A stretch of 64,000 bases of DNA from Bdellovibrionota bacterium (lineage in GTDB: Bacteria > Bdellovibrionota > UBA2394): assembly GCA_044351695.1 (NCBI GenBank), contig JBILFF010000001.1, forward strand, positions 2,400 through 66,399, in the 5' to 3' direction. The notes under the pieces were generated by a model. It worked only from the letters and a program-made list of their open reading frames with translations, ran no database searches and was not told the origin of the DNA. Positions 19,664 through 54,181 of this stretch are shown one piece after another. The position numbers were made by a program, and so were the translations under genes. Every line of letters begins with the position of its first letter. Position 1 is the stretch's first letter.

Positions 19664-19664
19664 A

Positions 19665-31178: not shown

Positions 31179-32081
31179 TTAAATCTCAATCGTCAGAATC
31201 TTTTTGATCCAAAGAGCGCCCATGGTGATGAAGACCAGCATAAGGCCAAGCAGAATTAAACCCAAGTTGGTGGTGAAAAGCAGGCCGATGTAGTCAGGCT
31301 GCGTGAAATACAAAAGTCCCATCATCACAAAGGGTAGAGACGAGAGAATAAATCCCTGAGTCACGCCCGCACTCACCATGGTTTTAATTTTTTCGTTCAC
31401 GCGCTGACGCTCGCGAATCGTGTGTGCAATGGTCTCAAACGCCTCGCTCAAATCTCCCCCCTGCTGAGAGAGCGTTACCACAGAGTTCACAATCATAAAC
31501 AAATCGGCAGAGGGCACGCGCTTGGACATATTCATAAGTGCCTCGTTCAGCGGAACCCCAATACGATTTTCTTTGATGACCATCGCAAACTCTTGCTTTG
31601 CCGGATTGGGCAGCTCTTGCTCAAGCAATTGCACCACTTGCAAAAAACTAAGGCCTGACTTGATCGCATTAGACATCATATTGAGCGCATCGATGAGCTG
31701 CAGATCAAACGTCTCAAGTCGTTTTTGATACACAAATCGAATCACGATGCCCGGCAAACGATAAGCGCCAAAGGCCAGGAGTGATCCTGCAATCAAACTA
31801 CCAATCAAACCAAAGCGAAGACCGATGAGAAGGCCCACGACCCCAAAAAAGATCGTGGTTCCTAAAATGATTTGATACGCGCGATTCATCGACTGGCGCA
31901 TGTACATGCGATCGAAGTAATCGTAGATCTCGGCAGCGTAGTCATGAACCCCGACCTTAATATCGCGCTCCCATTCTCCGTATTTGTTCATGAAGAGTAA
32001 GAAGAGCGCGACAAAAATCGAGGCCGCACCGAGAACCAAAAATACGTAATACTGCGCTTCGTTAAAAAAATTCTCGATCAT
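31179..32081 (-). CDS. tadB: Tad/Flp pilus assembly inner-membrane platform protein TadB-like (T2SS-F domain)
   Basis: T2SSF-type polytopic membrane protein (…AMVIKENRIGVPLNEAL…); 4-nt overlap with the upstream ATPase gene. Confidence 0.75.
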   Translation of the reverse strand: MIENFFNEAQYYVFLVLGAASIFVALFLLFMNKYGEWERDIKVGVHDYAAEIYDYFDRMYMRQSMNRAYQIILGTTIFFGVVGLLIGLRFGLIGSLIAGSLLAFGAYRLPGIVIRFVYQKRLETFDLQLIDALNMMSNAIKSGLSFLQVVQLLEQELPNPAKQEFAMVIKENRIGVPLNEALMNMSKRVPSADLFMIVNSVVTLSQQGGDLSEAFETIAHTIRERQRVNEKIKTMVSAGVTQGFILSSLPFVMMGLLYFTQPDYIGLLFTTNLGLILLGLMLVFITMGALWIKKILTIEI

Positions 32082-34441
32082 GCCTTAGTCCCCCGAATCG
32101 GTGCGCGAACGGGGAGTGGTCCGGGTGCGCCCGAGGCGCCCGGTGCTGCAGGACGTGAAATCGGTCGGGGAGTGGGTCCTCCCACTTTTGCCGCCATCGC
32201 CGCAGCTCCTGCTGCATTGGCTGGCATAGCGGCTGGACTTGAAGGTACCGAAGCCACGGCTGACCCTGCTGAGGGAGCCGCAGCTCCGCCACCACCAAAC
32301 ATTCCTTTGGGCAAAGCAATTCCTTTGGCCTTGAGTGACTCTACAAATTTGGGAATCAAACCCGACGGCTGATAAGTTCCCAAAACCTTACCCTTCTCAT
32401 CCGTCCCCGACTGCTTAAACTCAAAAATCGGTTGGGTCACAATCGTATCGCCCTCGAGACCCATGACCTCAGTGATATGCGAAATGCGGCGACTTCCGTC
32501 GCTAAAACGTCTGAGCTGAACAATCAAATTTACCGCGCCCGAAATCTGCTCACGAATCGCGTTAATCGGCATATCAAAACCCGCCATCATGACGAGCGTC
32601 TCGATCCGCCGCAAACAATCGCGTGGATTATTAGAGTGAATGGTCGTGAGCGATCCATCGTGGCCCGTGTTCATGGCCTGAAGCATATCGAGCGCTTCAC
32701 CCGCACGACATTCTCCCACCACAATTCGATCGGGTCTCATACGCAAGGTGTTTCGCACGAGATCGCGAATCGTAATTGCGCCCTCACCTTGTAAATTGGG
32801 CGGCTTGGTTTCAAGAGTAATCACATGAGGCTGCGGGAGCTGAAGTTCGGCCGCATCCTCTACAGTAATAATCCGCTCGTCCTCGGGAATAAAGCCTGAA
32901 ATCAAATTCAAAAGCGTCGTCTTACCAGAACCCGTTCCTCCGCTCACAATGATATTCAAATGGGCCTGAACAGCGGCCCGCAAAAAGTCTGACATCTCTT
33001 CAGTCAAGGACCCGTACTTCACCAGATCGGAAATCTGAAGTTTCTCTTTAAAGAATTTTCGAATCGTGAGCGTTGCACCCGAAAGTGCGAGCGGCGGAAT
33101 AATCACGTTGATACGAGATCCATCTTTAAGACGTCCGTCGCAAAGCGGGGTTTTCTCATCGACCCGCCGACCTATCGGCATCAGTATCCGATCGATACAA
33201 CTCATGAGTTGTTTTTCAGAGGTAAATCGCAGATCCGAGAGAAAAATCTTTCCCTTTTGCTCTACAAAAATTCGGTTGTGACCATTCACCATGATTTCGG
33301 TGACGTCTTTACTTTCAAGGAGCGGCTCTAATGGCCCGAGGCCCAAGGCTTCATCGATAATATCTTTGGCGAGGCCTGCGCGCTCTTTTCGATCTTGAAC
33401 TTCTTTTGCCTCTTCTTCGAGTAGGCGGTGTACGGCTTGAATGGTTTGGTTTTTTAATTCTTCACGCTTTCGAGGGTCTTTTTCGAGAGCGAGCGCATCC
33501 ATTTGCTTAAGATCCACCAACTCCAAAAGTCGATCGTGCACACGCATTCGAATGCTAATATTGCGAGTGAGAATGGGATCGGGCGTGCTGCCCGCCTTGG
33601 CGACCAGCTTATCGCTTACGCCTCCGCCGTAAGTAAAAGGCAGAACCGTTTTGAGCGAATCAAAAATCTGCAGAGCTCCGGGCTTGGAATTGGCGGGCTT
33701 GCCGGGCCGAATGCTCTCTTGCACGACACGAAGAGCTTCATCCATCGCCTTGATATAAGGATGCTTTGAATTCAAAAGATGCAGCGGCTTTGCGGTGGCC
33801 ACCGACTGCTGAAACGACGGGCTGTCTGCCGGCAAAAGAATTCGCGCATCGAGCTGCATTTTTTGTCGGAGGAGCGTTGGGTTTACGACTCCGCCCGGGT
33901 TAAAACGATTTACGACCAGTCGCAGTTGATCGTTTGAAAAATGAAGCGATCGAAGCCTCTTAATGTGCTCGCCCGATTGATTCACCGACAGAATGTCGGA
34001 ATCGGTGACCACGAAAATGAGATCGGAGTTCTCAAAAACTCTAAAACTAAGCGGGTTGATGTCTGCGCCCGCATCCACAATCACAAAGTCAAAGCTGCGC
34101 GCCAGAAGCTTAAGCGCCTTGTCGGCTACCACATCATCGAGATTCTGAAAGTCAGTTACAAAGTTGGCTGCATTCAAAATCGACAGGCCTGTCGAGTGTT
34201 TGCCCACCCAGTTCAGCGCAAGCTTGGGGTCCATCTTGTTCGACTCCTTCATAAAGTCGATCAAGGTTTTTTGATCTCTTGCGTTTAAGAAGGTCGAAAA
34301 ATCACCGAGATTTTTTACATCGGCCTCGACCAAACAAATCTTGCTCGCCCCACCTTGCATAAGACCCATGGCCAAATGAATGGCGTAGGTCGACTTACCC
34401 ACCCCATCTTTACCACCAGTGATCGAAATCAAAGCCCCCAT
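32078..34441 (-). CDS. fused TadZ/CpaE-like (ParA/MinD ATPase) and TadA/CpaF secretion ATPase, with low-complexity Gly/Ala/Pro C-terminal tail
   Basis: N-terminal deviant Walker A GGKDGVGKST (MinD/ParA-like); C-terminal VirB11/CpaF region (GGTGSGKTTLLN…TVEDAAELQL…TGHDGSLTTIHSN); 787 aa. Confidence 0.75.
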   Translation of the reverse strand: MGALISITGGKDGVGKSTYAIHLAMGLMQGGASKICLVEADVKNLGDFSTFLNARDQKTLIDFMKESNKMDPKLALNWVGKHSTGLSILNAANFVTDFQNLDDVVADKALKLLARSFDFVIVDAGADINPLSFRVFENSDLIFVVTDSDILSVNQSGEHIKRLRSLHFSNDQLRLVVNRFNPGGVVNPTLLRQKMQLDARILLPADSPSFQQSVATAKPLHLLNSKHPYIKAMDEALRVVQESIRPGKPANSKPGALQIFDSLKTVLPFTYGGGVSDKLVAKAGSTPDPILTRNISIRMRVHDRLLELVDLKQMDALALEKDPRKREELKNQTIQAVHRLLEEEAKEVQDRKERAGLAKDIIDEALGLGPLEPLLESKDVTEIMVNGHNRIFVEQKGKIFLSDLRFTSEKQLMSCIDRILMPIGRRVDEKTPLCDGRLKDGSRINVIIPPLALSGATLTIRKFFKEKLQISDLVKYGSLTEEMSDFLRAAVQAHLNIIVSGGTGSGKTTLLNLISGFIPEDERIITVEDAAELQLPQPHVITLETKPPNLQGEGAITIRDLVRNTLRMRPDRIVVGECRAGEALDMLQAMNTGHDGSLTTIHSNNPRDCLRRIETLVMMAGFDMPINAIREQISGAVNLIVQLRRFSDGSRRISHITEVMGLEGDTIVTQPIFEFKQSGTDEKGKVLGTYQPSGLIPKFVESLKAKGIALPKGMFGGGGAAAPSAGSAVASVPSSPAAMPANAAGAAAMAAKVGGPTPRPISRPAAPGASGAPGPLPVRAPIRGTKA

Positions 34442-36102
34442 CAGTTCGCTCCTCCCTCATCATCGCCCGCCACAGGCTCAACTGCGTCGAGATTGATTTT
34501 TTGTCGAATGTCTTTAGACGCGTCTCGTGCTGAAACCAGAATCTCGGGCGTCACAAAGACAATAAAAATACTTCGGTCTTGGTTCATCGCGCGACTCTTA
34601 AAGACGTTAAAAATATTTCCGAGAGCGGGGGTCACGGGTGCTGTCAGCCCTGGGGCTTGAAACCCAAAAGGTTGCGGGGCATCTTTGATATCAACCATCG
34701 AGGTCTTCACCACACCCCCCAGAGCCACCGTTTCACCTGATCGAACGTAGTTTGAAGTGTCGACACTTGATTCATTAACAATCACGCCCTGAACTTCAGC
34801 TGTAGACGATCCCAGAGCACGCACCGATACCGAGACTTTCATATCAATAAAGTCTCTCTCATCGGCAGTGGGAGTCACATTCAGAGTGACCCCGATAGGT
34901 ACCGGCTCGCCCGAAGTCACCAGCTGACCCTGTTGATTGACGGACTGTAAGAACAACTGGCCTCCCGAATTGATGGCCGCCACTTCTCCGCTCTTCACCG
35001 AGACGCTGGGGTTATGAAACACTCGCGCCACTCCCAAAGCCTTGGCCGTAGAGAGTCGGGGCAAGAAGTCACTCAGAACCGCGGCAAAACTAAAGGGCTC
35101 TTGACCAGCCGGAGTAGGAAATGGACCCACTTGAGTTTGCGCCAACGCCACCGGCGCCCAGCTAAAACTAAAGTTTCGCATAAAAGACTTATTGAGCTCT
35201 ACAAAGTGAGCAGAGATTTGCACCAGTCTGGCGGGTCGAGAGTTTTTACGGTCCGGATTGACCGCGATCACGTTTACGATTTTGTCGGCGGGCACATAAA
35301 TGCCAGCAATCAAACCAGCTCGTTCTTTTTCTTGCTCAGTGGCGACCTCACCCTTCAAGACCACTCGGTCTCTTACGTTTTCGACTTCAACACCAGAGAT
35401 GTTGATTTCGTTTTTAATCCGCCGAGTGAGAATACGCTGCGTGTCTCGCGAGAGTCCTACCAAGTTAACGACCGATGTATTGCCCGCAGTCACCTCGGCA
35501 ATTCGATCGAGATCGGCCTGCAAAAACACTTCGCCCTCGATAATGATGCGGCTACCCACACGCTTAAAGCTTAGGCCTTCAATATCGCGCAAAAGAAACT
35601 TAAGATCTTTGACGTAGGCATCGAGATCACTCGACGTCACCACGAGCTCAATTTTATCTCGCTGAATGCCGCGCGAATCAAAAAGCAGGATGGCTGTTTG
35701 ACCAGGACTTAAGGGAGAGACGATCATTCGACGTCGCGGCCGATCTAAAATCGGAGCCGCTATCGAGGGATTACCAATCGCAATCTCACCAATATCATAG
35801 TCGAATTCGATCGTGCGGGGCACGTTGACCACCAAAAGAAGTTCGCGATTTCGAATTTTATCGATGGGTGTTGCATCGGTACTCAGACTGATGCCCGACG
35901 CTGGCGCACTTGAGCTGGGAGTACTTGGGCTTGAAGCGCTAGAGTCCTCAATCAAGGCGGGAGGAGGCGTTGCGCTCGAGTCGCTAGGCTGACTTGAATT
36001 ACTCGATTCTTGAGCATCGAGCTTGAGTGGTAAAGCTAAGAAGACAAGCACAATCCCAAAATTGAGGTGCTGGCGATAACTACTTTTAGAACGGAGTAGC
36101 AT
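34441..36102 (-). CDS. cpaC: Flp pilus secretin CpaC/RcpA-like
   Basis: Signal peptide, Ser/Pro-rich linker, C-terminal secretin-like region; position between cpaB and the ATPase as in tad/cpa loci. Start taken at an internal Met to limit overlap with cpaB. Confidence 0.65.
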   Translation of the reverse strand: MLLRSKSSYRQHLNFGIVLVFLALPLKLDAQESSNSSQPSDSSATPPPALIEDSSASSPSTPSSSAPASGISLSTDATPIDKIRNRELLLVVNVPRTIEFDYDIGEIAIGNPSIAAPILDRPRRRMIVSPLSPGQTAILLFDSRGIQRDKIELVVTSSDLDAYVKDLKFLLRDIEGLSFKRVGSRIIIEGEVFLQADLDRIAEVTAGNTSVVNLVGLSRDTQRILTRRIKNEINISGVEVENVRDRVVLKGEVATEQEKERAGLIAGIYVPADKIVNVIAVNPDRKNSRPARLVQISAHFVELNKSFMRNFSFSWAPVALAQTQVGPFPTPAGQEPFSFAAVLSDFLPRLSTAKALGVARVFHNPSVSVKSGEVAAINSGGQLFLQSVNQQGQLVTSGEPVPIGVTLNVTPTADERDFIDMKVSVSVRALGSSTAEVQGVIVNESSVDTSNYVRSGETVALGGVVKTSMVDIKDAPQPFGFQAPGLTAPVTPALGNIFNVFKSRAMNQDRSIFIVFVTPEILVSARDASKDIRQKINLDAVEPVAGDDEGGAN

Positions 36103-36961
36103 AAACCTGCCCTCCGCGAATCTCACGATAGGCCGGAGGTGGCCCAACGACGATTGGTAGTTTGATTCCAAAAGCTCTAAACGGATCGAGGTAGTCGAGG
36201 TTATCGACCGTGCTTGTATCTCCAAAGGGTCGCAGCGAGAGAACGATACGACCCGCTGCCTGAGCCAAGATGAGCTTTTGAACATCTTGAGGGCTTAAGG
36301 CCACCGTCACGTTTTTATTCGCAAGATCTCCGCCCTCAAAGGCAGAGGTCATTCGATTCACTTGCGCAGAAGGCAGGCGCTGATCTTGACCCACCGCAAT
36401 GATTTGAATGCGCTGAAAGATGGTACGAACTTCGGCCTTCAGCTCTTGTGTTTGCGCGTTTAGAGCCGCTGCCCCCGCCATACCGCCCCGCTCGATTTCT
36501 TTGGTGCTTACAAAAAGCGTGAGCAGAATATCTACAAAATGACCGGGGCGAATAAGCCCTGCCACACCCACCACATCCTGATCGTCACGAATACCGATGG
36601 TGACCGCTCGCATGCCTTCTGGAATTCTTTTATCGAGCGAGCTCTCATCAAACGGAATGAGTTTAGTCGTCATGATGGGCTCATTGGCCTTGATCGTCGA
36701 CTGAGCGACCTGGCCAATCACTTGTGACTCGTTTACCGCCGTCTGGGGCGGAACATAGCGAGTAGGCCACACCTCTTTAACCACCATGTCGGCGGTGATT
36801 CTTGAGCCAGGGACGATATCTTGAAGTGCCTTAATAATCAGACTCTTCTCATCCATGTCTCCCACACGATTGTCGACCGCCTTACTCACAGACAGCAGAT
36901 AGAACACGGCGGCTCCCACTGCTGCTGCCAATGACCAGACTATAGCGCGTTTGTTTTCCAT
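36086..36961 (-). CDS. cpaB: Flp pilus assembly protein CpaB/RcpC
   Basis: N-terminal TM, SAF-like domain; typical CpaB length (291 aa). Confidence 0.75.
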   Translation of the reverse strand: MENKRAIVWSLAAAVGAAVFYLLSVSKAVDNRVGDMDEKSLIIKALQDIVPGSRITADMVVKEVWPTRYVPPQTAVNESQVIGQVAQSTIKANEPIMTTKLIPFDESSLDKRIPEGMRAVTIGIRDDQDVVGVAGLIRPGHFVDILLTLFVSTKEIERGGMAGAAALNAQTQELKAEVRTIFQRIQIIAVGQDQRLPSAQVNRMTSAFEGGDLANKNVTVALSPQDVQKLILAQAAGRIVLSLRPFGDTSTVDNLDYLDPFRAFGIKLPIVVGPPPAYREIRGGQVYATPF

Positions 36962-36962
36962 C

Positions 36963-39900
36963 TCAGTTCGTAGCCTTTCGCTCCTGCGACTTCAGAATTT
37001 CTGCAAATCGCATTTTTGTTTCGACATAACGACGGGACTTTTCTTGGTAATGCGCCTTGAGCGCCTCCAAAGTTTCTCGACCCGTCGTAAACTTAACTCG
37101 TGTGTAAATCTCTTCGGCTCGCTTCAAGCGCTCGTACTGAGAATCAGCAGGACTCATCTCGGCCTTACGATAAGCCTTGATCATTTGCGCAGCGGCTCGA
37201 GCGGCCTGAGCAAAGCGTCGCTCTTCGCTGAATCCACTGGCAATCACGGGACGATCCGATAGTTTTTCTTCGGCAACGCGTACTAAGTGAAAAACTTTTT
37301 GGGCTTCTTTGTAGCGCTCTTGATAGTTTTGGTGGGCCTTTGCAATCAGAGCTCGGTCTGCCTCGAGGCGTGCACCAGGAGCCGGTCGCTTAAGTTTTCG
37401 ATCGAGAATCTTTTGAGCCTCGTCAATTTTTTTCTGAAGTGCATTTAAATAAACCTCTGTTTGCAGCTCGCCCTCGGCCGCTCGGGCCTCGATGCTTTGT
37501 ATCGCCTCTTGAGAGGCCTCCAGAGTTCGCCAAAGGGCCGCCCCGTCGCGGTGACCAAATCGTCGCAAGACCTCGCGCTGAGAGATTTGACTGAGGGCAT
37601 TTGAGAGCGCCGTTAAACTGCCCGCATGACTTGAGCCTTCAAAGTTTTCTTTGAGAGCTCGAGGAAAATTTTGCTCTCCTTGTCGACGAATATTGTCGGC
37701 AAGAGCGGCTGTAAATTGCTGTTCGGCACGAACGATTTTTGGATTCAGGCTCATGCGACGACCGGCATTGCCCATGTCAACCGCGCCTGGTGCGCCTGAG
37801 TTCGAAGCCATCTGGCGCGCATAAGATTCTTCGCGATCGACGATGCGCTGCACGCTTTGATACGCCAAGAGCATGTCTTGAACAATTTGCTGATCAGGGG
37901 TTCGGCCCTGTGCCGTTTCTCGAGTGATATGATCCTCAGCCTGAGCAATCACACTCATGTATTCATCAAATCGAGCACGGTCGCCCTCCGTCAGCTGGGC
38001 ACGAATCGAGTTGGCCTTAGAATTGATCGTCGTCATTTTTTGACGAACATCACTTGCGGCCACCACTTCAACCGCGCTAGCCGGCTTACCGCTAGGGCCG
38101 CGATTTCGAGCAAACGAAGCGGCCTCGCTACTGGCTTGATTTTCCAACTCGCCGATTTCTTTTTGGGCCGCTGCATAATCAGCCCGCCCTTGGGCTTCGA
38201 TCTGATCAGCTACATCTTGAGCTTGATTGTATGCCTCGACCGCGCCCTTCACACCACCAGCCGTACCCACGACCATGTTGCCCGCATTGATCGTGGCGTT
38301 CACCGTTTTGAAGGCATCATTCGCCTTTTCGAAAGACGTTCGATTGTCGGGCGCTGCTTCTTTTGAGTTTGCATCTTTGTTGCCCTCACCAGAGGCTACG
38401 GCTTGGCCTGCGGCGTCTTTTTCTTTGCTCGAATTTTTAGCGTATTCGCCCACGGCGTCGGCAAACATTCCCGCAGCGCCTACTAATGCCAGCGCTCCCG
38501 CTCCCATGGTGGCGTAACCAAATTTTTCAGCCAACTCTTGATTACCAGTGGCCTGAGCGATGCTGCCGCCCACTGCTGCCACCCCGCCGATCGCGGCTCC
38601 CGTTTGAGCCAAGGCCTCAAAAGGTTTATCACTCAAAGAAATTTTGCCTGACTGCACACCGTGAGCAAATGAGCCCACCCCTCCCACTGCGGCAAGTGCC
38701 CCACCAGCAAGGCCGAGGCCCTTGGCGACTCCACTATCTGGATCTGCTATTCCAACAATCCCGCCGGCACCACTAATCAAGCCCCCCGCAGCGGTGACGG
38801 CCTCCCACTTAGCCCCGTCGACCCACTTGCCCTCTTTGATCCAGGTGTCAGTGACGCCTGTATAATTTTCTCCAAAACTAAAAGCAGCTCCACCAAAACC
38901 AGAAACAGTGCTCACGATACCCGCTGCTCGGCCAAAGTTAGGGTCGACGAATCCTCCAATCGTTCCTACACCGCCAGAAACTCCACTGATTCCTTTAAAA
39001 ATGTCTGAACCCAAACCCGCTTGGCCTAGAGTTTGGTTGTTCACTGTGAAACCATCAAATTTTTGAAAACTTGAAATTCCGCCTGCAATTCCTCCAGCGG
39101 CCCCAGTGATAGCTGCGGCCATACCCAAAGCCTCACTTTGATTTCCGCCGAGTGCTAAGCCCGCGTTCACTAAATTGAGTCCATTAGAAACTGTGTTTAA
39201 AACCTGGCCGGTATTGTAGATGACAAAGCCTTCTTTGAGTCCCTGCCCCCCTCCTAGAAACTGTACAATGTTATTGAGAGTGCTATTGGCGGTCGCACCC
39301 GCTGCCGCCCCCGTGTTTGCAGCACTTGCAGCACTTGCTGCGTTTATCGCTTGAATGTTTGCAATCGATGCCATCGCAAGAGAGACGATGGCTGCAACAC
39401 CTCCTCCTGTAATTCCATCCATCGCGCTCACAGTGCCTCGAAAGTTGTGCGCTTCTTGAGCAAGTCGTGGGTCGTTCTCGACGATTTGCTTGAGCTGCTC
39501 TTCAATAAACTGCGTGTTGTCAATGAGGCCCACACCCGCCACATCGGCGGCCTGCATGAGCGGCTGAAGTTTTAATAGGTGAACTCCGCCACTATAAATT
39601 CCGGTGCCGCCACCAAAACCAGCGGCCTGATTCAAGTTTAGATCTGAGGGGTCTTCATTTAATTTCAAAGATCGATTAGAGGCAATCGCCACCGTTTGAC
39701 TCATGACCCACTCACGAGCTGCTATGTCATCACCACCAATATCCCACTTGTATTTAACAACCCCCGTCGGAAAACTAAATTGCTGCCAAAAACGATTTTG
39801 TACTTTGGGCAGGGCGCCATCAAACTGCATCTCGCCCTCAACTGCTTTTTTAAAACTATCGATCTTGTCGAGCTCGATGCGAGTGCCCGGGGTTTCTTTG

Positions 39901-42239: not shown

Positions 42240-42249
42240 CCTCTCTCGC

Positions 42250-42459: not shown

Positions 42460-42517
42460 CGGTATTGCTTCTCCTTTTACAAAGTGGTTAATGGGGACAA
42501 ACTTTTGAGCAGCGTCA

Positions 42518-42871: not shown

Positions 42872-42917
42872 CAAACACGGGCTGTGAAAGACTCATCAGG
42901 GCACCCAAAAGTCGTCT

Positions 42918-46070: not shown

Positions 46071-46449
46071 ATATATAGATATTTTGTTTAGTAGCGCGAT
46101 CACCCTGACTCGAGACCGCGTATCGACACCATGCACTAAAGGGGTTGGGCTCATTCGATCACTACAAACCAGCAACAAAGGTGCCAAAAAATGTCACTCT
46201 GCGCTGTGAATAAGCATCCACAGGGCCTCTAAAAACCCATGAATTTAAGGTGCTTAGCTCGGGCTCTCTCTGCACAGGCGCACCCCTAGGGCCCGGACAT
46301 GCCCTCTACGCAAAGTGCTGCATAGCCAAAGACGATCCCCTGCGAGGCAAGCGGGTCTCAAGCCTGCGTCTAAAAACAGCCCCCACCTACCAAAACAAGC
46401 CCAGCCCAAAATAAATTACGTTTTATTTTGGTCTAGACCATTATAAAAT

Positions 46450-47610
46450 GTGGTTTATAATGGCCGGGTGTTAGAACGACTCATCCAGCACCCTGTTCAG
46501 CAGGATCTTTTGAAAAAGATTGTTTTTATCTCGGGCCCTCGGCAATGCGGAAAGACCACTCTTGCTCAAGAGCTCATCCGAACGAGCAAAGACTCGGGCC
46601 TATACTTAAACTGGGATGACCCTAAGGATCGCCTGCGCATTATCAGGCGAGACTGGGATGACTCACAAAGGCTCATTGTATTGGATGAAATTCATAAGAA
46701 TAAAAAATGGAAGAATTTTGTTAAAGGCACCTACGACACTCAAAAAACGAAGCACTCTTTTTTAGTCACCGGAAGCGCCCGACTCGACCTCTACCGAAAA
46801 GGCCAAGACTCGCTCATGGGTCGCTACCACCATTGGCGACTTCACCCCATGGGCCTTGACGAACACCCTCAATCGATGAGCCCCAAAGAAGCGCTTCGGC
46901 GACTGCTGCGGGTAGGAGGATTTCCGGAACCCTTTCTTGACGGAGGAGAAACAGTAGCCCGTCGATGGCGGCTTGCTCGACGCGAAAATATTTTTAGATC
47001 GGACATTCAGAGCATTCAAAATGTGGGCGAAATTACAAAACTCGAGCTTTGTTTTGACCTGCTTCGGTCTCGAGTGGGCTCCCCGATATCCTATAAAAGT
47101 TTGCATGAAGATCTCGACGTATCGGCTCCTACCGTTAAGGCCTGGACTGAACTTTTGAGCCTCAGCTACGCCAGCTTTATTGTTCGCCCCTACGCAAAAA
47201 TGGAGCGCTCCATCAAGAAGGCGCCAAAGATCTACTTTTTCGACAACGCCGATGTAGATGGCGACGAAGGCGCTGTTTTTGAAAACTTGGTGGCCAACCA
47301 CTTACTCAAAAAAATAAATTATCTTCAAGACAAGACGGGCCACGCTTACGATCTCTGTTATCTTAGAGACAAAGAGGGCCACGAAGTAGACTTTGTGATT
47401 TTGAAAGACCGAAAGCCCCTTGAATTGATCGAAGCCAAACTCTCCGACACCAACGATTACAAAAACCTGCAGTACTATGCGGAGAGGTTAAAGCCCGAGC
47501 GAGCTGTTTTGTTGGTGGCTCAACCTAATCGATCACTCTGGAAACGCGGCCGCATGGAATGCCTCTCGGTTTTCGATTACTTTGCGCCAGGCAAAGCGGC
47601 TGCGGCCTGA
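46450..47610 (+). CDS. AAA-family ATPase (DUF4143 / COG1373-type)
   Basis: Walker A GPRQCGKTT near the N-terminus; architecture typical of the widespread ATPase with a C-terminal DUF4143. Confidence 0.7.
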   Translation: MVYNGRVLERLIQHPVQQDLLKKIVFISGPRQCGKTTLAQELIRTSKDSGLYLNWDDPKDRLRIIRRDWDDSQRLIVLDEIHKNKKWKNFVKGTYDTQKTKHSFLVTGSARLDLYRKGQDSLMGRYHHWRLHPMGLDEHPQSMSPKEALRRLLRVGGFPEPFLDGGETVARRWRLARRENIFRSDIQSIQNVGEITKLELCFDLLRSRVGSPISYKSLHEDLDVSAPTVKAWTELLSLSYASFIVRPYAKMERSIKKAPKIYFFDNADVDGDEGAVFENLVANHLLKKINYLQDKTGHAYDLCYLRDKEGHEVDFVILKDRKPLELIEAKLSDTNDYKNLQYYAERLKPERAVLLVAQPNRSLWKRGRMECLSVFDYFAPGKAAAA

Positions 47611-47700
47611 CTGATTAACAGCGAGCAGGACCAAGCAAACACATCTCCTCAAAAACCACTAACCCCAAAAATAAAAAAATTTATTTTGATCGCACTGCGC

Positions 47701-50277
47701 TTACTGCAAATTTTTTCGTCTCACCGCTTGAAAGCGACGATTTGCTTTATCGGCCAGCTCGCCGCGAGGGTCTACCGTGTCGAGCGTCTTTTTATAGAAT
47801 TGCTCGGCCGCCACAATGTCGTCGGCCTCAAACTCAAAAACACGCGCCTGATTATAAAGCTGGGCCCCTTTGGCAGAGGTTTTAGACTCCAGCTCTGCCC
47901 GAATCTCTAGAAAGCTTTGATGATCTACACCCACCTGATCGCCAATTTGATACAGAAGATCCCAGGCCTGTTTAAAATTTTCAATCTGCACTAAGCTGGT
48001 AATGTCTTGTCGGGTTCGGTCGAGAGTCACTTTTATTTCTCTGATCAAGTCATCGCGCAAGCCCTCCATGCTCGCAATATCGCCGTGATCAGGATAGGCT
48101 CTGATGAAATCATTCGTCTTACGAAGCGAGTCCGAATACCGCTTTGCCAGAAACAGCTGATTGATCTCGGCAATCAAGTCTGCCCCCTTTTCTTCTTGCT
48201 TGGCAATCAGCGCCCGCCTTTTGCTGCGCTCCTCTATCGATTGATTCATTTGCCGCTGCTTGCCGCGCCACTCTGTCCCTGCACTGGTGACATACTCTGC
48301 AAATTGAGGCTTTTGCTTCACCAAATTGTCGAGGCGCTCTAAAAGTTTGGTCGCATAATCTTTTGCCCCATCAAAATCTTGGGCGCTCACATATTCTTCA
48401 TAGGTCTTATTATGCTGCATCATGATCTTTACAAAAGTCTCTCGCTCTTCCGGGGTAACCAACTGCCCCTTTTCGAGCCCCACAAAACTCATGCGCTCAT
48501 CGAGCTCCTTTCGCATGGTAAGCAGCTCGGCATTCTCTGGCGCCTCTTTTAAAAACAAATCCACATACTTTGAAGCCTCTTCATTGCGCTGCGCCTTAAA
48601 GGCCTCAATCATCCGTGATCTCATCAGAGCAAAAACTTCGGCGATGTTTCCGTTGTTGTCGATCAGCGCTTGAGTGAGCTCGGGATCAGAAAGAATACTG
48701 TGGTAAAGCTCTGCCGGCACTTGCTGCAAATACTGTTTCATGTCTTCGGGTAGCGGAAAACTTTGCATTTTTTGTAAGACCAAACTTTTGACGTCTTCGG
48801 GCGCAGCCTCACTGATCGGCTTGCCAAGATCTTGCGCAATTTGCGCGGGCAGAGCGCTTAATTGGCCCTGCACAAAACCCTTCAAACTGCTTTGCAAAAA
48901 TTCCTGAATGCGCGCCGTGTTTTGAAAGGCCCAGAAACTTCCAGCAAGCACAATAGTAGCGAGCGCGAGCCACCGCATTCTTTTTGAGCCCGATCGCTTT
49001 AGCTTACGATTGTTTGTCGGAATCATCATCGTCTCTTGGTTTGAGTTGGGAGGCTCAGACCCATCGAGCGCCGCATCGGAATCGGAAGCGGCAGCGGCAC
49101 CAGACTCCAAATCGCCCTCGACTTCAAATCGCAGCTTGAGATTACCTATCTGAATGATATCGAAATTTTTAAGCACGGCTTCGGGCTGTGTTTTGTCGTT
49201 CACCTGAACGCCATTGGTCGACTGAAGATCAACAACCACAATCTGGCCCTGAACCTCTCGGAACTCTGCATGAAAGCGAGAGGCGTTTGAGTCATCGACA
49301 CTCAAGTCGTTCTTCGGATCACGCCCGATCGAGTAGGGCAGCCGCGTGAGCTCAATCTCACCTTCAATCGGAGAGTGCGCCAGCGGGATCAGTCGATAAA
49401 TCGGCTCGTCCGCTCTTTGCGCTTTGCTTATGGGGTACTCAAAAGCCACTGTCTTTCGCGAGATCCCACTGCCGGCCGGCACCACGGCTTCTTTATAGCT
49501 TTCGTAGAGCTCATCGATGGGATCTTCAGCTCCACCCGAGGCTTCATCTGCCAAACCTTCGAGCGCAGCCTCAGCCGCCAGCTCGCTCTCGGGAATTTTT
49601 TTAGTGAAAGCCTCTGCTTGATCGATGCCCTCATCGGCAAAAGGGGCCGCACTCAAATCTTGCGATAAAATTTGAGACTCGCTCAGGCCCTCAATGGCAT
49701 CAGACAAAATAATCGTGCGCGACGAATGAGATTCAGCGATCGAAGTTTTTGATTTAGCCGTCGATTGATCTTCAAACTCAACAAAGCTTTCAGCCTGGCC
49801 ATGAAGCCTAGTTTTGCGACTGTCTGCCCGATAGCTTTGAGCAAAGATATCGGTGGCTCGCGAGGCATCGGCCTCCTCAACCCCCGCTAAAAGTTTGTCT
49901 TCGAGCGTGGCGTCTTGCTGAAGCTCTTGAATCAAAACCGCCTCTTCTTGATCTCCGTAAATGTTGGTTTGCCGAAAGCCCCCTGACTCTGCCTGAATCG
50001 TCGCCTCATCACCAAAGTCGTTTTCAGTAATTTCTTGAGTGGCAGTAGGCTCCTCCGACAAAAAGCCGGGGCTGTCAGGCGAATGCGCGAAGACTTCGTC
50101 TGAATGCGCTGGCACATCACTCAGTGGGTGAGACTGCTCTAAGGTGGTGCTCGGCTCATCCGTGACCGGAGCGGCGACGGCCGCAACACTCGATGAAGAG
50201 GCCTTTGCCTTCGAGTGGATTGCCGAACTGTCGGACATGCCGATCAGTTTTAAAAAGCTGTCATTTGCTGCACTCAT
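47701..50277 (-). CDS. FHA-domain membrane protein (acidic N-terminal region, FHA, TM, periplasmic helical C-terminal domain)
   Basis: FHA signature …YSIGRDPKNDLSVDDSNASRFHAEF…TNGVQVN; TM MRWLALATIVLAGSFWAF; 858 aa. Confidence 0.65.
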   Translation of the reverse strand: MSAANDSFLKLIGMSDSSAIHSKAKASSSSVAAVAAPVTDEPSTTLEQSHPLSDVPAHSDEVFAHSPDSPGFLSEEPTATQEITENDFGDEATIQAESGGFRQTNIYGDQEEAVLIQELQQDATLEDKLLAGVEEADASRATDIFAQSYRADSRKTRLHGQAESFVEFEDQSTAKSKTSIAESHSSRTIILSDAIEGLSESQILSQDLSAAPFADEGIDQAEAFTKKIPESELAAEAALEGLADEASGGAEDPIDELYESYKEAVVPAGSGISRKTVAFEYPISKAQRADEPIYRLIPLAHSPIEGEIELTRLPYSIGRDPKNDLSVDDSNASRFHAEFREVQGQIVVVDLQSTNGVQVNDKTQPEAVLKNFDIIQIGNLKLRFEVEGDLESGAAAASDSDAALDGSEPPNSNQETMMIPTNNRKLKRSGSKRMRWLALATIVLAGSFWAFQNTARIQEFLQSSLKGFVQGQLSALPAQIAQDLGKPISEAAPEDVKSLVLQKMQSFPLPEDMKQYLQQVPAELYHSILSDPELTQALIDNNGNIAEVFALMRSRMIEAFKAQRNEEASKYVDLFLKEAPENAELLTMRKELDERMSFVGLEKGQLVTPEERETFVKIMMQHNKTYEEYVSAQDFDGAKDYATKLLERLDNLVKQKPQFAEYVTSAGTEWRGKQRQMNQSIEERSKRRALIAKQEEKGADLIAEINQLFLAKRYSDSLRKTNDFIRAYPDHGDIASMEGLRDDLIREIKVTLDRTRQDITSLVQIENFKQAWDLLYQIGDQVGVDHQSFLEIRAELESKTSAKGAQLYNQARVFEFEADDIVAAEQFYKKTLDTVDPRGELADKANRRFQAVRRKNLQ

Positions 50278-51206
50278 CGTCTTATTAACTTTTTCTTCTT
50301 AGCCTCTTCGAGTTGCTGACGCGCGCTCTTGCGAACCACAGAGTCATCGTCGGCGATTAATAAAACCTCTTGAAACTTCACAATGGCCAAATCGTAGTAA
50401 TAGTTTTCGAGAGCTCGAGAGCCCTCTTCAAAGCGAAGGTCTGCTAAGGCGGTCTGATTGGTCTTCACTCGCTGTACGGCTTCACACACCTCGCGCGTAT
50501 TTTCCATTCGAGCAAAGCAGGCCAGGGCCAATCTATAGTTGCCCAAATCTTCATGCTCTCGGCAGGCCTCAAAGGCCTGAACGGGAGTAGGTTGTTTAGA
50601 GATTTTCGCGGCCGCACAGGGGTTGTCTTGAATCGCCGCCTGCGCTTGTTCTAGAATCTGCTGACTGCCCGTGGGCCCTCCCAGCATCTGCACTAAAACA
50701 ATCATGAGCAGAAGCACGCCTCCGCCCACGATGATTTTTTTCTTGAGCGGCGGGAGCGCCGCAAAGCGATCCAATAAACTTGCGCGAGGAGCCAGCCCAA
50801 CTGCCGTTTCTTCGGTCGGTCCTGAGGGTTTTGTTTTTGGGTGTTTCTGAAAGAACTGGCCCTCAAGATCTCCGATTTCAAAACGATCGTTATTTCGCAG
50901 CTCGGCTCGCTGCACGCGCTTTCCCTTCACTTTGATTCCATTGCGACTTTTTAAATCTTCGATAAATACGCCGCTCTCAGTCACATAAAACTGCGCGTGT
51001 TGTCGCGACACGCTCGGGTGATCAATCACAATTTGGTTTTCAGAAGCGCGACCCAGGGTAACGATCTCTGCCGAGAGGCTATACTCGCGGCCCTCGATAC
51101 GAATCAAACACTCGGGGGGTAATGGCTCGCCCCTCAGCTGACTTGAGCTTGCGGCGTAGGGATCTACTTTTGAGATCGATCTTCTGTTTTTTATGTTCGT
51201 ACTCAT
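50274..51206 (-). CDS. FHA-domain membrane protein with periplasmic TPR-like C-terminus
   Basis: FHA …VTLGRASENQIVIDHPSVSRQHAQF…SRNGIKV; TM IIVGGGVLLLMIVLV; 4-nt overlap with the downstream gene. Confidence 0.65.
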   Translation of the reverse strand: MSTNIKNRRSISKVDPYAASSSQLRGEPLPPECLIRIEGREYSLSAEIVTLGRASENQIVIDHPSVSRQHAQFYVTESGVFIEDLKSRNGIKVKGKRVQRAELRNNDRFEIGDLEGQFFQKHPKTKPSGPTEETAVGLAPRASLLDRFAALPPLKKKIIVGGGVLLLMIVLVQMLGGPTGSQQILEQAQAAIQDNPCAAAKISKQPTPVQAFEACREHEDLGNYRLALACFARMENTREVCEAVQRVKTNQTALADLRFEEGSRALENYYYDLAIVKFQEVLLIADDDSVVRKSARQQLEEAKKKKLIRR

Positions 51207-51249
51207 CGCTTCGCCGTCCTTGGTGTCTGTCGGCGAACCAGCTTGAAAC

Positions 51250-52842
51250 TTAAGCTTGGTAGAAGAACAACAAGGTCGCTACTTGCTTACCTTGATGTAG
51301 AAGCGGCATGCCCCGAACTTGTAAGATCCGGTCAGTGGCCGATACCGCCCTATCCATTACTTCCGGCGATCCACTCAACTCATTCAAAAAAGCCATCAGC
51401 TCCATTTGAAGGTGAGTGTCGGCAATGGCCTCAGTCACATGTTTTTGTGACCAATCCGATTGCATCGGAACAATGTCTTGGAGGTAACCCGAAACCGCCA
51501 TCACCTGGTTGTCCGGATCCACCGCCATAACGGCTCGTTCTTCCAACAGAAACACCTGATCTAAAAGAGTTTGCAAGAAGCCTGCCTCAGCCTGAGACCC
51601 CTCTGCCCCCCCCTTAACCCCCTGATTTACCTTTGAAATCAGCCGATTCAACTCGGCCACCAACTCGTCAAAGGCCGCAAAGCTTTGCAGACTCTCCACA
51701 TTTTGCGCTGTGCCCGTGTAGAGCAGATGAACCTCTTCGGTCAGGCTTCGAATGCCCTGCTTGGTCCAATACAAAACCGCCCAGACCAAAAGCAAAGAGA
51801 AGATCAGTACCAAAATTAAAGTTTGAGTTCGTATCGATGAAAACTTATCGATGGCTCGATTAAACTCTAGTGGTTCAAACAAAATTCGCGTGTACCCCAC
51901 CAGCTCCGGAGGGGCTGCGCCCTCTTTGCGCACCCGCACCGGATACACCACCTCGCACTGATCTCCGTTTTGACCCAAAAGTTTTGAGCCGCAAGTATCA
52001 ACGCGATTTTGAGTTCTCTGCGCCTCAAGAAACAAATCGTCTTTGGGCATCTTCACTCCGATCGGACACAAAGTGCCCCCGTCCTTGCCCAAAATAAATG
52101 CCTGATTCACACCCTCATTTCGGCCATAACCTTCGCAATCAAAAATGAGTTGCGACTGGGCTAAACTGAGCTTGGATCTCTCGCCCAAATTCTCGGCCAG
52201 AAGCTGCGCGTTCTTGCGCGCCTCAGCTAAAAAACGGAGCCGAGCCTCGGTATGGAGCGCTTGATACGATACAAAATGAAATCCAATGGCGCCCAAAATC
52301 ATCAGCAAAATAATTTTGAATTTAAAGTCGAGACGCTCAAATCGAGCATGAACAATCCCCGCCAGGGCCCGAAGCCGCGCGATCGGCGATTCCCGAGGGC
52401 CCATCGCCAGCGGTAAATTTGGATCAGGAGCGTCCTCTGCAAAACCCTCCGACTCAGCAGCGGCCGCCTGCTTTGCGTCGGCCATCGCATCCGCCCTGTT
52501 TTTGTAGGCTGTCTTTCTTTGTACCAGAGTTCGGGCCAGCTCTGCTTCGAGCTTAAATCCAAACTCGCCAAGCTCTACTCGATCGCCACTCTTGAGCGCC
52601 GCTGCCGGCACCTTTCTGCGATTTACACGTATGCCATTAAAGCTTTTGAGATCTCGTATCTTCCACTGTCCGTGTTCAAAAAAAATTTCTGCATGATTTC
52701 TGGAAACGGTTTGAGAGGGGAGCTCAATCGCCGAGAGCTCTTCTGCCGCTTCGGGCTCACGGCCTAATCGATAGACCTTTGATTCTTCGAGCTCAAAATC
52801 GCGTCCCGCCAGGGGGCCCTTTACAAAACGAATCCTTACCAT
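51250..52842 (-). CDS. FHA-domain protein with two TM helices and a C-terminal sensor-like domain
   Basis: N-terminal FHA (…YRLGREPEAAEELSAIELPSQTVSRNHAEI…FNGIRVN); TM segments near residues 170 and 340. Confidence 0.6.
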   Translation of the reverse strand: MVRIRFVKGPLAGRDFELEESKVYRLGREPEAAEELSAIELPSQTVSRNHAEIFFEHGQWKIRDLKSFNGIRVNRRKVPAAALKSGDRVELGEFGFKLEAELARTLVQRKTAYKNRADAMADAKQAAAAESEGFAEDAPDPNLPLAMGPRESPIARLRALAGIVHARFERLDFKFKIILLMILGAIGFHFVSYQALHTEARLRFLAEARKNAQLLAENLGERSKLSLAQSQLIFDCEGYGRNEGVNQAFILGKDGGTLCPIGVKMPKDDLFLEAQRTQNRVDTCGSKLLGQNGDQCEVVYPVRVRKEGAAPPELVGYTRILFEPLEFNRAIDKFSSIRTQTLILVLIFSLLLVWAVLYWTKQGIRSLTEEVHLLYTGTAQNVESLQSFAAFDELVAELNRLISKVNQGVKGGAEGSQAEAGFLQTLLDQVFLLEERAVMAVDPDNQVMAVSGYLQDIVPMQSDWSQKHVTEAIADTHLQMELMAFLNELSGSPEVMDRAVSATDRILQVRGMPLLHQGKQVATLLFFYQA

Positions 52843-53204
52843 TCGAGTCGATCCCCCACACGAAGATCGCCTAAATCACAGAGCGAAAACTCAACCAGAT
52901 AGCTACAGCCCCCCAGCAAATATCGCCCCGGAGCAATGAGCCGTCCGGGCTTAACCGCTCGATAGATTGCTCGCACTACTTTTTCAGAATTACAAAAAAC
53001 AATGTCGATCGAAAACTTCATGCCAAAAGTATGGACCACGGGCAAAAAGCCTCCGAGCGCCAAATCAAAAACCGCCGCCGATTGACGGGGGGCTTGCGAG
53101 TATTTAAGTAAGCCGCGGGCCCTCTCGGCAGCACTCCTAAAAAATTCGAGCCGCTCAGCAAGCAGTCGTTGGTCTCGATGGGCTTGTGCAAGTCTCGTGA
53201 TCAT
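52836..53204 (-). CDS. DUF192 (COG1430) family protein
   Basis: …MKFSIDIVFCNSEKVVRAIYRAVKPGRLIAPGRYLLGGCSYLVEF fits the DUF192 pattern (…ID.vF.d…V……P……YVLE); overlaps both neighbours. Confidence 0.55.
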   Translation of the reverse strand: MITRLAQAHRDQRLLAERLEFFRSAAERARGLLKYSQAPRQSAAVFDLALGGFLPVVHTFGMKFSIDIVFCNSEKVVRAIYRAVKPGRLIAPGRYLLGGCSYLVEFSLCDLGDLRVGDRLEW

Positions 53205-54181
53205 TACAAGAAGTTCTTAAATAAAGGGTTGTTGTAGTAGAGGTCGCAAACCACCGGCCCCAGAATCACAATAAAAACGGCAGGCAAAATACAAATGACC
53301 AGCGGTAATAAAATCTTTTGCGATGCCTTGGCCCCTTCGCGCTCCGCCTTAGCAAATCGATCGCGCCTCAAAAGATCACTCTGCGCCCGAAGCACGCCCC
53401 CAATGCTCGCTCCCATCTCGTCGGCCTGAATCAGAATCGAAACAAACGAAGAAATCTGCGACAGCTCTGTGCGATCGGCCATGTTTCTCAGCGAGTCGGC
53501 ACGCGAGGTGCCCAGCTGAATTTCTTTAAGAACCGTGTTGAGCTCATCGATGAGTGGGCCGGGCTTTGAAAACTGAATCACGCGCGAAAGTGCCGCCATA
53601 AAATCCATGCCGGCCTCAACAGAGAGCGTAAGCAAGTCCATGACATTGGGCAGCTCCCGAATGATCGCCTTTTGGCGCCGCTTTTTTGTTTCAATCACAA
53701 TATAGTCGGGAATATACAGCCCCACCAAAGCCACTAAAAGCGCGTGCGGCAGACCCAAGCTGCTGCCCGCCTGAAGCGCAAAGAGAGTCGCAAAAACAAC
53801 CGCAAGACCCGCAGCACAAATTTTGAGTCCCACAAATTCATCAGGATCAAACTGATCCGAAACTCCAGCCACAATAAACAGCTTGCGCTTTTTTTGCCTA
53901 TACATGGGCATCTTCATTTGCTGAATCCGAGGCACCATTGCCGAGTAAAATGGCGATAGAAATTTAAGTGACCAGTGCCGAAACACACGATTTGCGCTCT
54001 CAACCCCCAAGCGCTGCTGCGCGGCCAAAAGCTCTTGATCCGGAAAGATGAGCTTTACTGCATTAAAAACAAAAAAGCCGATGCACAGCATCCCTAAGAG
54101 CTGAAAACTCGTGGATAAAATATAATCAAAGGTCAAAGCCATGGATTGCTCCGTAAAGATTGATTGCAAGGCCCAAGCCAC
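53204..54181 (-). CDS. tadC: Tad/Flp pilus assembly inner-membrane platform protein TadC-like (T2SS-F domain)
   Basis: T2SSF-type polytopic membrane protein (…LPNVMDLLTLSVEAGMDFMAAL…). Confidence 0.75.
   Translation of the reverse strand: MAWALQSIFTEQSMALTFDYILSTSFQLLGMLCIGFFVFNAVKLIFPDQELLAAQQRLGVESANRVFRHWSLKFLSPFYSAMVPRIQQMKMPMYRQKKRKLFIVAGVSDQFDPDEFVGLKICAAGLAVVFATLFALQAGSSLGLPHALLVALVGLYIPDYIVIETKKRRQKAIIRELPNVMDLLTLSVEAGMDFMAALSRVIQFSKPGPLIDELNTVLKEIQLGTSRADSLRNMADRTELSQISSFVSILIQADEMGASIGGVLRAQSDLLRRDRFAKAEREGAKASQKILLPLVICILPAVFIVILGPVVCDLYYNNPLFKNFL

Follow-up and report, generated by a model that had tools for sequence, protein, structure and literature searches.

What kind of machine is encoded between positions 31179 and 54181 of the DNA analysed here, and is it as unusual as it appears? 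The stretch as a whole, hereafter the window, comprises 64,000 nucleotides, and all positions are given in its numbering. The original prediction described this region as a Tad/Flp-type pilus locus of a Bdellovibrio-like predator and held it to be non-canonical. We consider it very probable that positions 31179-54142 constitute a single conserved Tad (type IVc) pilus locus of a Bdellovibrio-like subtype, related to the Kil system of Myxococcus, in an uncultured lineage of Bdellovibrionota. The classification as a Tad/Flp-type locus, together with all the domain assignments on which it was based, was reproduced by searches against Pfam, NCBIfam or PDB.

Organization of the locus

The locus is a nearly uninterrupted run of genes on the minus strand, from 54142 down to 31179, with one plus-strand gene in between. 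The order is tadC, the DUF192 gene, three FHA genes, the plus-strand DUF4143 gene, a lipoprotein gene, two flp genes, tadE, tadG, a gene for a protein of 1064 amino acids, cpaB, the secretin gene, tadZA and tadB. In the following list, arrows mark predicted cleavage sites.

53204-54142, minus strand: tadC, inner-membrane platform protein with four hydrophobic segments (Pfam T2SSF, E 1.5e-20)
52836-53204, minus strand: DUF192 protein of 122 amino acids, directly after tadC, with no signal peptide (Pfam DUF192, 32.3 bits; cutoff 27)
51250-52842, minus strand: FHA protein 1, 530 amino acids (FHA, E 7.6e-14; Yop-YscD_cpl, E 2e-11)
50274-51206, minus strand: FHA protein 2, 310 amino acids (FHA, E 1.8e-20), with a hydrophobic segment at residues 158-176 and then a helical C-terminal part
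47701-50277, minus strand: FHA protein 3, 858 amino acids (FHA, E 5.3e-15; weak TPR match)
46450-47610, plus strand: ATPase gene with AAA_14 and DUF4143 domains (Pfam)
42918-46154, minus strand: giant lipoprotein, 1078 amino acids, with the lipobox LVAC (no Pfam or NCBIfam match)
42847-42870, minus strand: hairpin resembling an intrinsic terminator, downstream of the lipoprotein gene and ahead of the first flp gene (9-bp stem, 7 of its pairs G-C, followed by a T-rich tail)
42518-42763, minus strand: Flp-like pilin 1, 81 amino acids, RRA↓QTTLEY (Class_IIIsignal, 21.9 bits, below cutoff)
42250-42462, minus strand: Flp pilin 2, 70 amino acids, the better Flp match of the pair, RKA↓QTALEY (Flp_Fap, 27.7 bits; cutoff 32.2)
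41415-42239, minus strand: TadE-like minor pilin, 274 amino acids, ERA↓QTALET (Pfam TadE, 28.4 bits; cutoff 22.9)
40157-41491, minus strand: TadG-like minor pilin, about 400-444 amino acids (Pfam Tad, 19.5 bits; cutoff 22.3)
36963-40157, minus strand: giant prepilin-like protein, 1064 amino acids, HRA↓QSVIEL (no family match)
36086-36961, minus strand: CpaB/RcpC periplasmic alignment protein, 291 amino acids (SAF and RcpC; TIGR03177 pilus_cpaB, 134 bits; cutoff 71)
34441-36102, minus strand: CpaC/RcpA secretin, 553 amino acids, with a signal peptide (T2SS-T3SS_pil_N, BON and Secretin)
32078-34441, minus strand: TadZA fusion ATPase, 787 amino acids (AAA_31, CbiA and T2SSE; MinD and TadA-family NCBIfam matches)
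31179-32081, minus strand: tadB, inner-membrane platform protein of 300 amino acids with four hydrophobic segments (T2SSF, E 3.8e-15)

Three of the starts deserve comment. The open reading frame (ORF) of tadC reaches 54181, and public gene calls begin at 54142, which is the most likely start; a protein of 312 amino acids identical to the window TadC has been annotated as "tight adherence protein C" by the Joint Genome Institute (JGI). The secretin most likely starts at 36102, as in the public gene call of 553 amino acids, and not at 36285, the mechanical end of the ORF. For the lipoprotein, the most likely start is 46154, which gives 1078 amino acids rather than the 1089 first reported.

In this arrangement tadC is the first gene and tadB the last, with about 21 kb between them. 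These platform genes had been assigned to two operons 7 kb apart; they are in fact the two ends of one contiguous locus, the order of which is kept in relatives. On two related metagenome contigs (L083 and L084), the same order is found: FHA, FHA, lipoprotein, flp, flp, tadE, tadG, giant, cpaB, secretin, tadZA and tadB. The encoded proteins are 29-82% identical to those of the window, with the exception of the lipoprotein, which has almost no sequence similarity. The genes flanking the locus agree as well, with a hydrolase and a PilT-family ATPase on both contigs and Lon on L084. Four species-level metagenome-assembled genomes (MAGs; L004, L007, L008 and L011) carry, in this order, genes for DnaJ and UvrA, the series tadC-DUF192-FHA-FHA-FHA and the series flp-flp-tadE-tadG.

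The core machine is readily recognized. TadB and TadC each have one T2SSF domain. TadZA begins at residue 1 with a ParA/MinD-like domain, before which there is no receiver-like domain (AAA_31, 36 bits; CbiA, 33 bits; Walker A sequence GGKDGVGKST at residues 9-18), and continues with a linker, a CpaF motor at residues 301-705 and a Pro/Ala-rich tail. The motor matches the solved CpaF chains 8rkd and 9e24 with an E value of 1.6e-130 and T2SSE with one of 8e-64, and Pfam gave no match to an FHA domain on this ATPase. The tail (residues 706-787; window 32078-32320) is a low-complexity segment of about 80 residues rich in Pro, Ala and Gly, and alignments to the distant fused ATPases of three other loci (L045, L055 and L070) end at residue 715, ahead of the Pro/Ala/Gly-rich tail. 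For the secretin, there was no Pfam match to Secretin_N, and the absence of N0 is judged by sequence profile only. The original prediction had also noted the lack of a TadD-like gene, and we agree: no TPR lipoprotein, TadD pilotin or RcpB-like gene was recognised in the locus, the sole lipoprotein of which (42918-46154) has no family match.

To which lineage does the locus belong? One genome per species was scanned with a TadC alignment, and the best 80 loci by TadC were kept. In this species-level scan the loci closest to the window tadC have 57-69% TadC identity and all lie in MAGs, labelled mostly Bdellovibrionota, Bacteriovoracaceae or "Deltaproteobacteria", with one "Bradymonadales"; no cultured organism is among the best 80. 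Because the closest loci all come from MAGs, mostly so labelled and none of them cultured, the source is probably an uncultured lineage of Bdellovibrionota. The labels of these relatives thus bear out the proposed Bdellovibrio-like affiliation, and it is from the same labels that a predatory lifestyle has been read.

Comparison with the Bdellovibrio and Myxococcus systems

By published description, the Tad system of B. bacteriovorus resembles that of the window in several respects. First, its main locus has the order flp, minor pilins, cpaB, secretin, ATPase and tadB. Second, it has a TadZ-ATPase fusion without a receiver-like domain (a likeness of description, not of sequence), which interacts with RomR (Tesseur 2026 preprint, bioRxiv 10.64898/2026.07.08.737194). 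Third, its secretin has a BON domain, there is no TadV in the locus, and tadC is away from tadB and accompanied by FHA/TPR genes, in a separate tadC locus near FHA, TPR and PilZ genes (bioRxiv 10.64898/2026.07.08.737194). In contrast to B. bacteriovorus, the window has its tadC module joined to the main locus, with just the lipoprotein gene and the inserted gene between them, and it has both a 1064-amino-acid prepilin-like gene between tadG and cpaB and a giant lipoprotein before flp. No hit-locus genes (Bd0108/Bd0109-like) were recognised next to the window tadB.

Myxococcus Kil is likewise Tad-derived and rich in FHA proteins, including an FHA protein (PrgH-like by HHpred) and an FHA/TPR protein beside kilH (Seef 2021, PMC8460266). 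Its secretin KilC combines BON with pilus-N domains (PMC8460266), a domain composition identical to that of the window secretin, and the system also includes TadE/TadF/TadG-like minor pilins, proposed to be variable tips, and lipoproteins of unknown role. The B. bacteriovorus homologues are Bd0110-Bd0119, with the KilH homologue far off at Bd0470 (PMC8460266). Unlike the window, Kil has in KilF an N-terminal FHA domain instead of TadZ, has kilG and kilH adjacent to each other, encodes a prepilin peptidase, KilA, in cluster 1, and distributes its genes over two distant clusters; no 1000-amino-acid prepilin-like protein has been reported for it. The KilLMN tip is predicted to be a heterotrimer of minor pilins whose TadG-like subunit bears a variable distal domain, and the window has three candidate counterparts, the TadE-like, TadG-like and 1064-amino-acid proteins. 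Kil assembles at prey contact sites, and the B. bacteriovorus machine is polar.

With the canonical systems, Aggregatibacter tad and Caulobacter cpa, the window shares Flp, TadE/TadG-type pilins, RcpC/CpaB, RcpA/CpaC, the TadZ/CpaE function, TadA/CpaF, TadB and TadC. It differs from them in the fusion of TadZ to TadA, in the placement of tadB and tadC at opposite ends of the locus, in the presence of three FHA proteins, DUF192 and two giants, in having no recognised TadV/CpaA, TadD or RcpB, and in the Ala, not Gly, found at position -1 of its four prepilin-type proteins. The FHA proteins themselves recall PrgH/YscD of type III secretion systems and Fha1/TagH of type VI secretion systems, which likewise join an FHA domain in the cytoplasm, through a single membrane segment, to a domain on the outside. 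All three window proteins match Yop-YscD_cpl, and the 530-amino-acid protein gives a weak TagH match, the FHA domain alone being covered; no ring-building periplasmic domains were recognised on them. PrgH and YscD have probably lost the residues that bind phosphothreonine.

A neighbour-joining tree (100 bootstraps) was constructed from 240 ATPase columns for 32 taxa of the published Kil supermatrix, the window and its relatives. The window, L083 and L084 form a deep branch of their own with 100% support, outside the alphaproteobacterial Tad group (95-100%), and the ranking of ATPase identities between the window and the published taxa is flat (44-57%). The locus would thus be filed by architecture and not by clade: architecturally it matches the Bdellovibrio/Kil-type Tad systems, and it probably works like them. 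The likeness to Myxococcus Kil and to the Bdellovibrio hit/Flp region that had been drawn at the outset was apt, and the published descriptions match.

Is the FHA complement a peculiarity of this genome? The tadC end of the locus was surveyed in the related loci, counting an FHA gene if its coding sequence lay on the same strand no more than 6 kb downstream of tadC, and limiting the count to the 59 loci with at least 3 kb of sequence beyond tadC. FHA genes follow tadC in all 59 of these loci, at least two separate FHA regions being present in 58. A DUF192 homologue stands directly after tadC in 34 of 75 related loci, and tadB adjoins tadC in just 7 of 62. The series T2SSF-DUF192-FHA-FHA/TPR-FHA/TPR was confirmed by Pfam in a Bdellovibrionaceae MAG (L035), and the series TadC-FHA(PAS)-FHA/TPR-FHA/TPR in a Myxococcota MAG (L042). 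We found nothing relevant in the literature on a link between DUF192 and Tad pili.

In the three window proteins, each FHA domain keeps the phosphothreonine-binding signature GR..SxxH..NG. FHA protein 1 (signature GR..SRNH..NG) is predicted to consist of the FHA domain, a membrane segment (173-191), an outside loop of about 150 amino acids, a second segment (341-359) and a cytoplasmic C-terminal domain; its counterpart in L042 has a C-terminal PAS match. In FHA protein 3, an acidic Ser/Thr-rich N-terminal region of about 300 amino acids precedes the FHA domain, which is followed by a weakly hydrophobic stretch (436-452) and a helical C-terminal part of about 400 amino acids. The counterparts of FHA proteins 2 and 3 in L035 and L042 combine FHA with TPR.

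Two observations on the module were made in other genomes. In a Pseudobdellovibrionaceae MAG (L056, 11217-17121), tadC and a 118-amino-acid ORF in the DUF192 position are followed by four consecutive ORFs, at least three of which give FHA-type matches by tblastn; modules may therefore differ in how many FHA proteins they encode. In L042, a weak match to a protein-kinase domain (19073-20803, minus strand; 22.7 bits, below cutoff) lies within a few kb of the tadC-FHA module and is a hint of the Ser/Thr kinase on which the FHA proteins would depend.

On the basis of this survey and the published traits of Kil and Bdellovibrio, what had been stressed as unusual is normal for a subtype already described. 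Earlier accounts exist of FHA proteins, of split platform genes, of a TadZ-TadA fusion and of a missing peptidase alike, and what survives of the claim that the locus is non-canonical is the presence of two giants that the cited literature does not mention. It had been allowed from the start that the gene order might prove standard for the genus; with FHA genes after tadC in every informative locus this is nearly so, yet the exact contiguous order including two giants does not appear in the cited literature.

Might this nevertheless be an ordinary adhesion or biofilm pilus of a non-predator, with the FHA module as a regulatory layer of a broad Tad subfamily unrelated to predation? The subfamily is broad indeed: tadC homologues followed by FHA genes are likewise present under the MAG labels Acidobacteriota, Desulfarculaceae, Schekmanbacteria and Phycisphaerales, none of them a known predatory group, and long TadZ-ATPase fusions occur in the Acidobacteriota and Schekmanbacteria MAGs as well, those of L045, L070 and L075 aligning over query residues 2-715 or more. 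For the source organism, moreover, a predatory habit is read from the labels of relatives. Nevertheless, Bdellovibrionota or Bacteriovoracaceae is the label on its nearest relatives in terms of TadC, UvrA and synteny, and in both organisms tested the subtype is needed for prey killing or invasion; in B. bacteriovorus, Tad is needed for prey attachment and invasion (bioRxiv 10.64898/2026.07.08.737194). We regard a plain adhesion pilus as a possible, if rather unlikely, explanation, and favour a contact organelle of the Bdellovibrio/Kil type.

Pilins, giant proteins and the middle of the locus

How secure are the pilins, some of which match their families poorly? Across all six reading frames of the 64 kb there are exactly four matches to the pattern [KR][AG][QS]x.[ILV]E with a hydrophobic stretch after it, and each of them is an N-terminus: those of both Flp proteins, the TadE-like protein and the 1064-amino-acid protein. 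Because this cleavage motif is found just four times, always in this operon, the weak-scoring pilin calls gain support. It is also kept in relatives, with Gly or Ala at -1, and throughout the family of the giant protein; L008, for example, has Flp orthologues with Gly (RG↓QTALEY and KG↓QTALEY). Orthologues of Flp-like pilin 1 are present in L004, L008, L083 and L084, and Flp pilin 2 has a GGAG ribosome-binding site upstream and orthologues 58-70% identical to it. Given the sub-cutoff Flp_Fap score, the Flp identity would rest on motif, size, position and orthology. The start of the TadG-like protein is uncertain, probably the Met at 41449, and its N-terminus, RRAIALVFF, has no Glu at +5; its relatives are 47-64% identical, and the L083 orthologue has a precomputed PF13400 Tad match.

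No Peptidase_A24 domain was found by the Pfam scan among the window ORFs of at least 130 amino acids, nor in L083 or L084, which bears out the earlier statement that no prepilin peptidase is visible. Because Bdellovibrio genomes also have no TadV (Avidan 2017, PMC5430801), its absence is compatible with membership of the subtype and does not exclude the locus from it.

The giant prepilin-like protein has no Pfam or NCBIfam match, and a PDB profile search with its family returned nothing credible. A word-indexed search for it listed 5 matches, low-complexity words crowding the result, and an exhaustive profile search was needed; among 1.84 billion representative proteins, this recovered 38 clusters of the family. 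The clusters that were looked up trace to metagenomes or MAGs and lie on contigs that also carry the closest TadC group. Every apparently full-length member has a short basic leader, the motif [GA]↓Q[TS][ILV][ILV]E, a hydrophobic helix and the sequence FE(V/I)SQKQTML.R.QAF.ELGN; the leader, cleavage motif and helix are a prepilin signature, as judged from these sequences, and position -1 switches between Gly and Ala, just as in the orthologues of Flp and TadE. The counterparts in the same position of L083 and L084 have 1110 and 1063 amino acids, respectively. The window protein has a long N-terminal helix, a small beta region, a Gly/Ala-rich region of about 330 amino acids and a charged, helical and variable C-terminal part of about 450. 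In the Gly/Ala-rich region there are about eight uncharged helices of membrane-spanning length, and many glycines are invariant in an alignment of five sequences, the window and four homologues. An AlphaFold2 (AF2) model from the same five sequences had a pLDDT (predicted local distance difference test) score of 41.7, and its secondary structure alone was used. The idea of a glycine zipper was dropped, as residues 241-600 contain 17 GxxxG motifs compared with 14.9 +/- 3.1 in composition-matched shuffles, and so was that of the two giants as paralogues, as BLASTP gave no significant match between them.

The giant lipoprotein is a different case. It has long predicted helices, a disordered Ala/Ser/Pro-rich region of about 220 amino acids and a C-terminal coiled-coil-like part, and its AF2 model, made from the single sequence, is of low confidence (pLDDT 46.0). 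Among the matches listed by the word-indexed search, there was no homologue but itself. Nevertheless the slot between the last FHA gene and flp is filled in L004, L008, L083 and L084 by a lipoprotein of 528-1170 amino acids with C-[ND]-x-E (1170 or 1060 in L083/L084). These slot lipoproteins have almost no similarity between genomes, though the neighbouring genes are 60-82% identical. Conserved position alone would argue that the lipoprotein, and likewise DUF192, belong to the machine. Neither the giant prepilin family nor this hypervariable lipoprotein slot has an account in the Bdellovibrio/Kil literature cited here.

A further explanation makes the pilus a delivery device, whose giant prepilin-like protein, and perhaps the lipoprotein, would be cargo or effectors, membrane-inserting or prey-binding, carried at the pilus tip or passed through the secretin. 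The cleavage site kept across the whole 1064-amino-acid family, the membrane-length Gly/Ala-rich helices with their many invariant glycines and the charged helices after them are consistent with such a role; so is the pace at which both giants evolve, much faster than the core (45% identity to L084 for the prepilin-like protein and about 25% for the lipoprotein, against 60-82% for the core genes), and the Kil literature has proposed variable tip domains and an unidentified toxin (PMC8460266; Herrou 2025, PMC12075869). Against this, neither giant resembles toxin, translocon or adhesin families in the searches made, GxxxG motifs are no commoner than composition predicts, neither structure model is reliable, and an extension of 1000 residues would need passage through the secretin. 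We therefore hold delivery to be distinctly unlikely as an account of the locus. A more specific version, offered as a long shot, is that the 1064-amino-acid protein represents an undescribed giant-prepilin family from Bdellovibrionota-like MAGs, the members of which would be cleaved and tip-borne and would present the membrane-length helices and a variable coiled-coil to the prey envelope as an insertion- or translocon-like module, with the lipoprotein as a co-evolving partner.

What, then, of the plus-strand gene in the middle of the locus? The original prediction placed a DUF4143 ATPase here, correctly as to position and domains; it is not a component of the locus. Because the same slot is empty of it in both L083 and L084, where the lipoprotein gene lies within about 250 nucleotides of the last FHA gene, the DUF4143 gene is, on this comparison of sequences, a local, lineage-specific insertion and not a machine component. 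An imperfect 30-nucleotide inverted repeat (46407-46436 and 47659-47688; 73% complementary) brackets it, and could reflect a small mobile insertion or chance. In L083, a DUF4846 gene (13334-14140) is inserted between the giant prepilin gene and cpaB, which again suggests that insertions are tolerated in the central part of the locus. The hairpin at 42847-42870 is the top-scoring terminator-like site within 40000-55000.

This hairpin, the inserted gene between the FHA and lipoprotein genes and the separation of the module from the main tad locus in Bdellovibrionaceae would suit a reading in which the FHA genes and DUF192 are chance neighbours or belong to a distinct signalling system, the Tad locus proper covering 31179-42769 only, but we judge it highly improbable, given that the essential platform gene tadC heads the module, that FHA genes follow it in all 59 informative loci across several phyla, with DUF192 directly after it in the 34 of 75 already mentioned, and that the Myxococcus FHA genes flank kilH and kilG.

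Proposed mechanism and significance

Several points weigh against the assignment to a Bdellovibrio/Kil-type contact organelle and temper our confidence in it. The organism is known from metagenome contigs alone, and its predatory habit comes from MAG labels. Its ATPase has a TadZ domain and not the FHA N-terminus of Myxococcus KilF, and in the ATPase-only tree its placement relative to Bdellovibrio, Halobacteriovorax, Myxococcus and the beta- and gammaproteobacterial Tad systems has 35% support. Both Flp calls and the TadG call score below the Pfam cutoffs, and the structure predictions for both giants are too poor to use. Gene neighbourhood is the only basis for the roles given to the FHA proteins, to DUF192 and to both giants, and the window showed neither a Ser/Thr kinase nor RomR or PilD.

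With these points in mind, we propose that the machine may work as follows. By homology, TadB and TadC form the inner-membrane platform, the CpaF-type motor is a hexameric ATPase powering pilin insertion and extraction, and CpaB with the BON secretin provides the conduit through periplasm and outer membrane. The filament and its minor pilins, again by homology, are the two Flp proteins, the TadE-like and TadG-like proteins and the prepilin-like protein of 1064 amino acids, four of these five having the same predicted [KR]A↓Q..[IL]E site. As there is no prepilin peptidase in the locus, cleavage would be carried out by a peptidase encoded elsewhere, in the way that PilD processes Flp1 in B. bacteriovorus (bioRxiv 10.64898/2026.07.08.737194). 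The TadZ domain may place the motor at a defined site, as it does through RomR in B. bacteriovorus, and the three FHA membrane proteins may serve as an inner-membrane scaffold or as a phosphothreonine-dependent signalling layer coupling a Ser/Thr-kinase or envelope signal to assembly. By analogy with KilLMN, TadE, TadG and the giant prepilin-like protein could form a priming or tip complex, and the pilus would then serve prolonged attachment to prey or to another surface.

The surroundings of the locus offer some further observations. About 5 kb beyond tadB lies a gene for a PilT/PilU-family ATPase of the type IVa pilus (24898-26067, plus strand; TIGR01420, 463.6 bits against a cutoff of 319), next to which are genes for an alpha/beta hydrolase, Lon and alanyl-tRNA synthetase (26123-26989, 22340-24763 and 19665-22298, respectively). 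In L083 and L084, tadB likewise has a T2SSE ATPase and a hydrolase beside it, joined in L084 by Lon; such a neighbourhood may simply be synteny of the genome backbone, or it may connect type IVa with Tad pili. Directly downstream of tadB are a Fic/DOC protein with a C-terminal winged-helix (29304-30374, minus strand) and a His-rich ORF of 196 amino acids without a family match (30441-31031, minus strand), which occupy the place of the hit-locus genes in B. bacteriovorus and are replaced by other genes in relatives. Farther away, an HTH_3 (Xre-type) gene overlaps a DUF6036 nucleotidyltransferase gene in a toxin-antitoxin-like layout (16342-17381, minus strand), and at 60319-61494 (plus strand) there is a NamZ-type exo-beta-N-acetylmuramidase of peptidoglycan recycling or degradation, which fits cell-wall scavenging and is not specific to it.

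Tad pili have recently been recognized as the organelle by which bacterial predators make contact, in the form of Kil in Myxococcus and of Tad in Bdellovibrio, and how the FHA proteins act and how the pilus harms or grips prey are standing questions of the field. The core of the window locus and most of its oddities have already been described, and what it adds is a family of giant prepilins, a slot for hypervariable lipoproteins and an uninterrupted layout of tadC module and main locus. The tadC-DUF192-FHA module, scattered in Bdellovibrio, is here joined to the main tad operon, which supports FHA proteins and DUF192 as parts of the machine. The module, the separation of tadB from tadC and the TadZ-ATPase fusions are widespread and not peculiarities of B. 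bacteriovorus, and they reach lineages not known as predators. Finally, two fast-evolving giants, one of them with a conserved prepilin signal, are nominated for the prey-facing end, and if the speculation about an envelope-inserting giant prepilin is true, the 1064-amino-acid protein would be a concrete candidate linking Tad/Kil pili to damage of the prey envelope.

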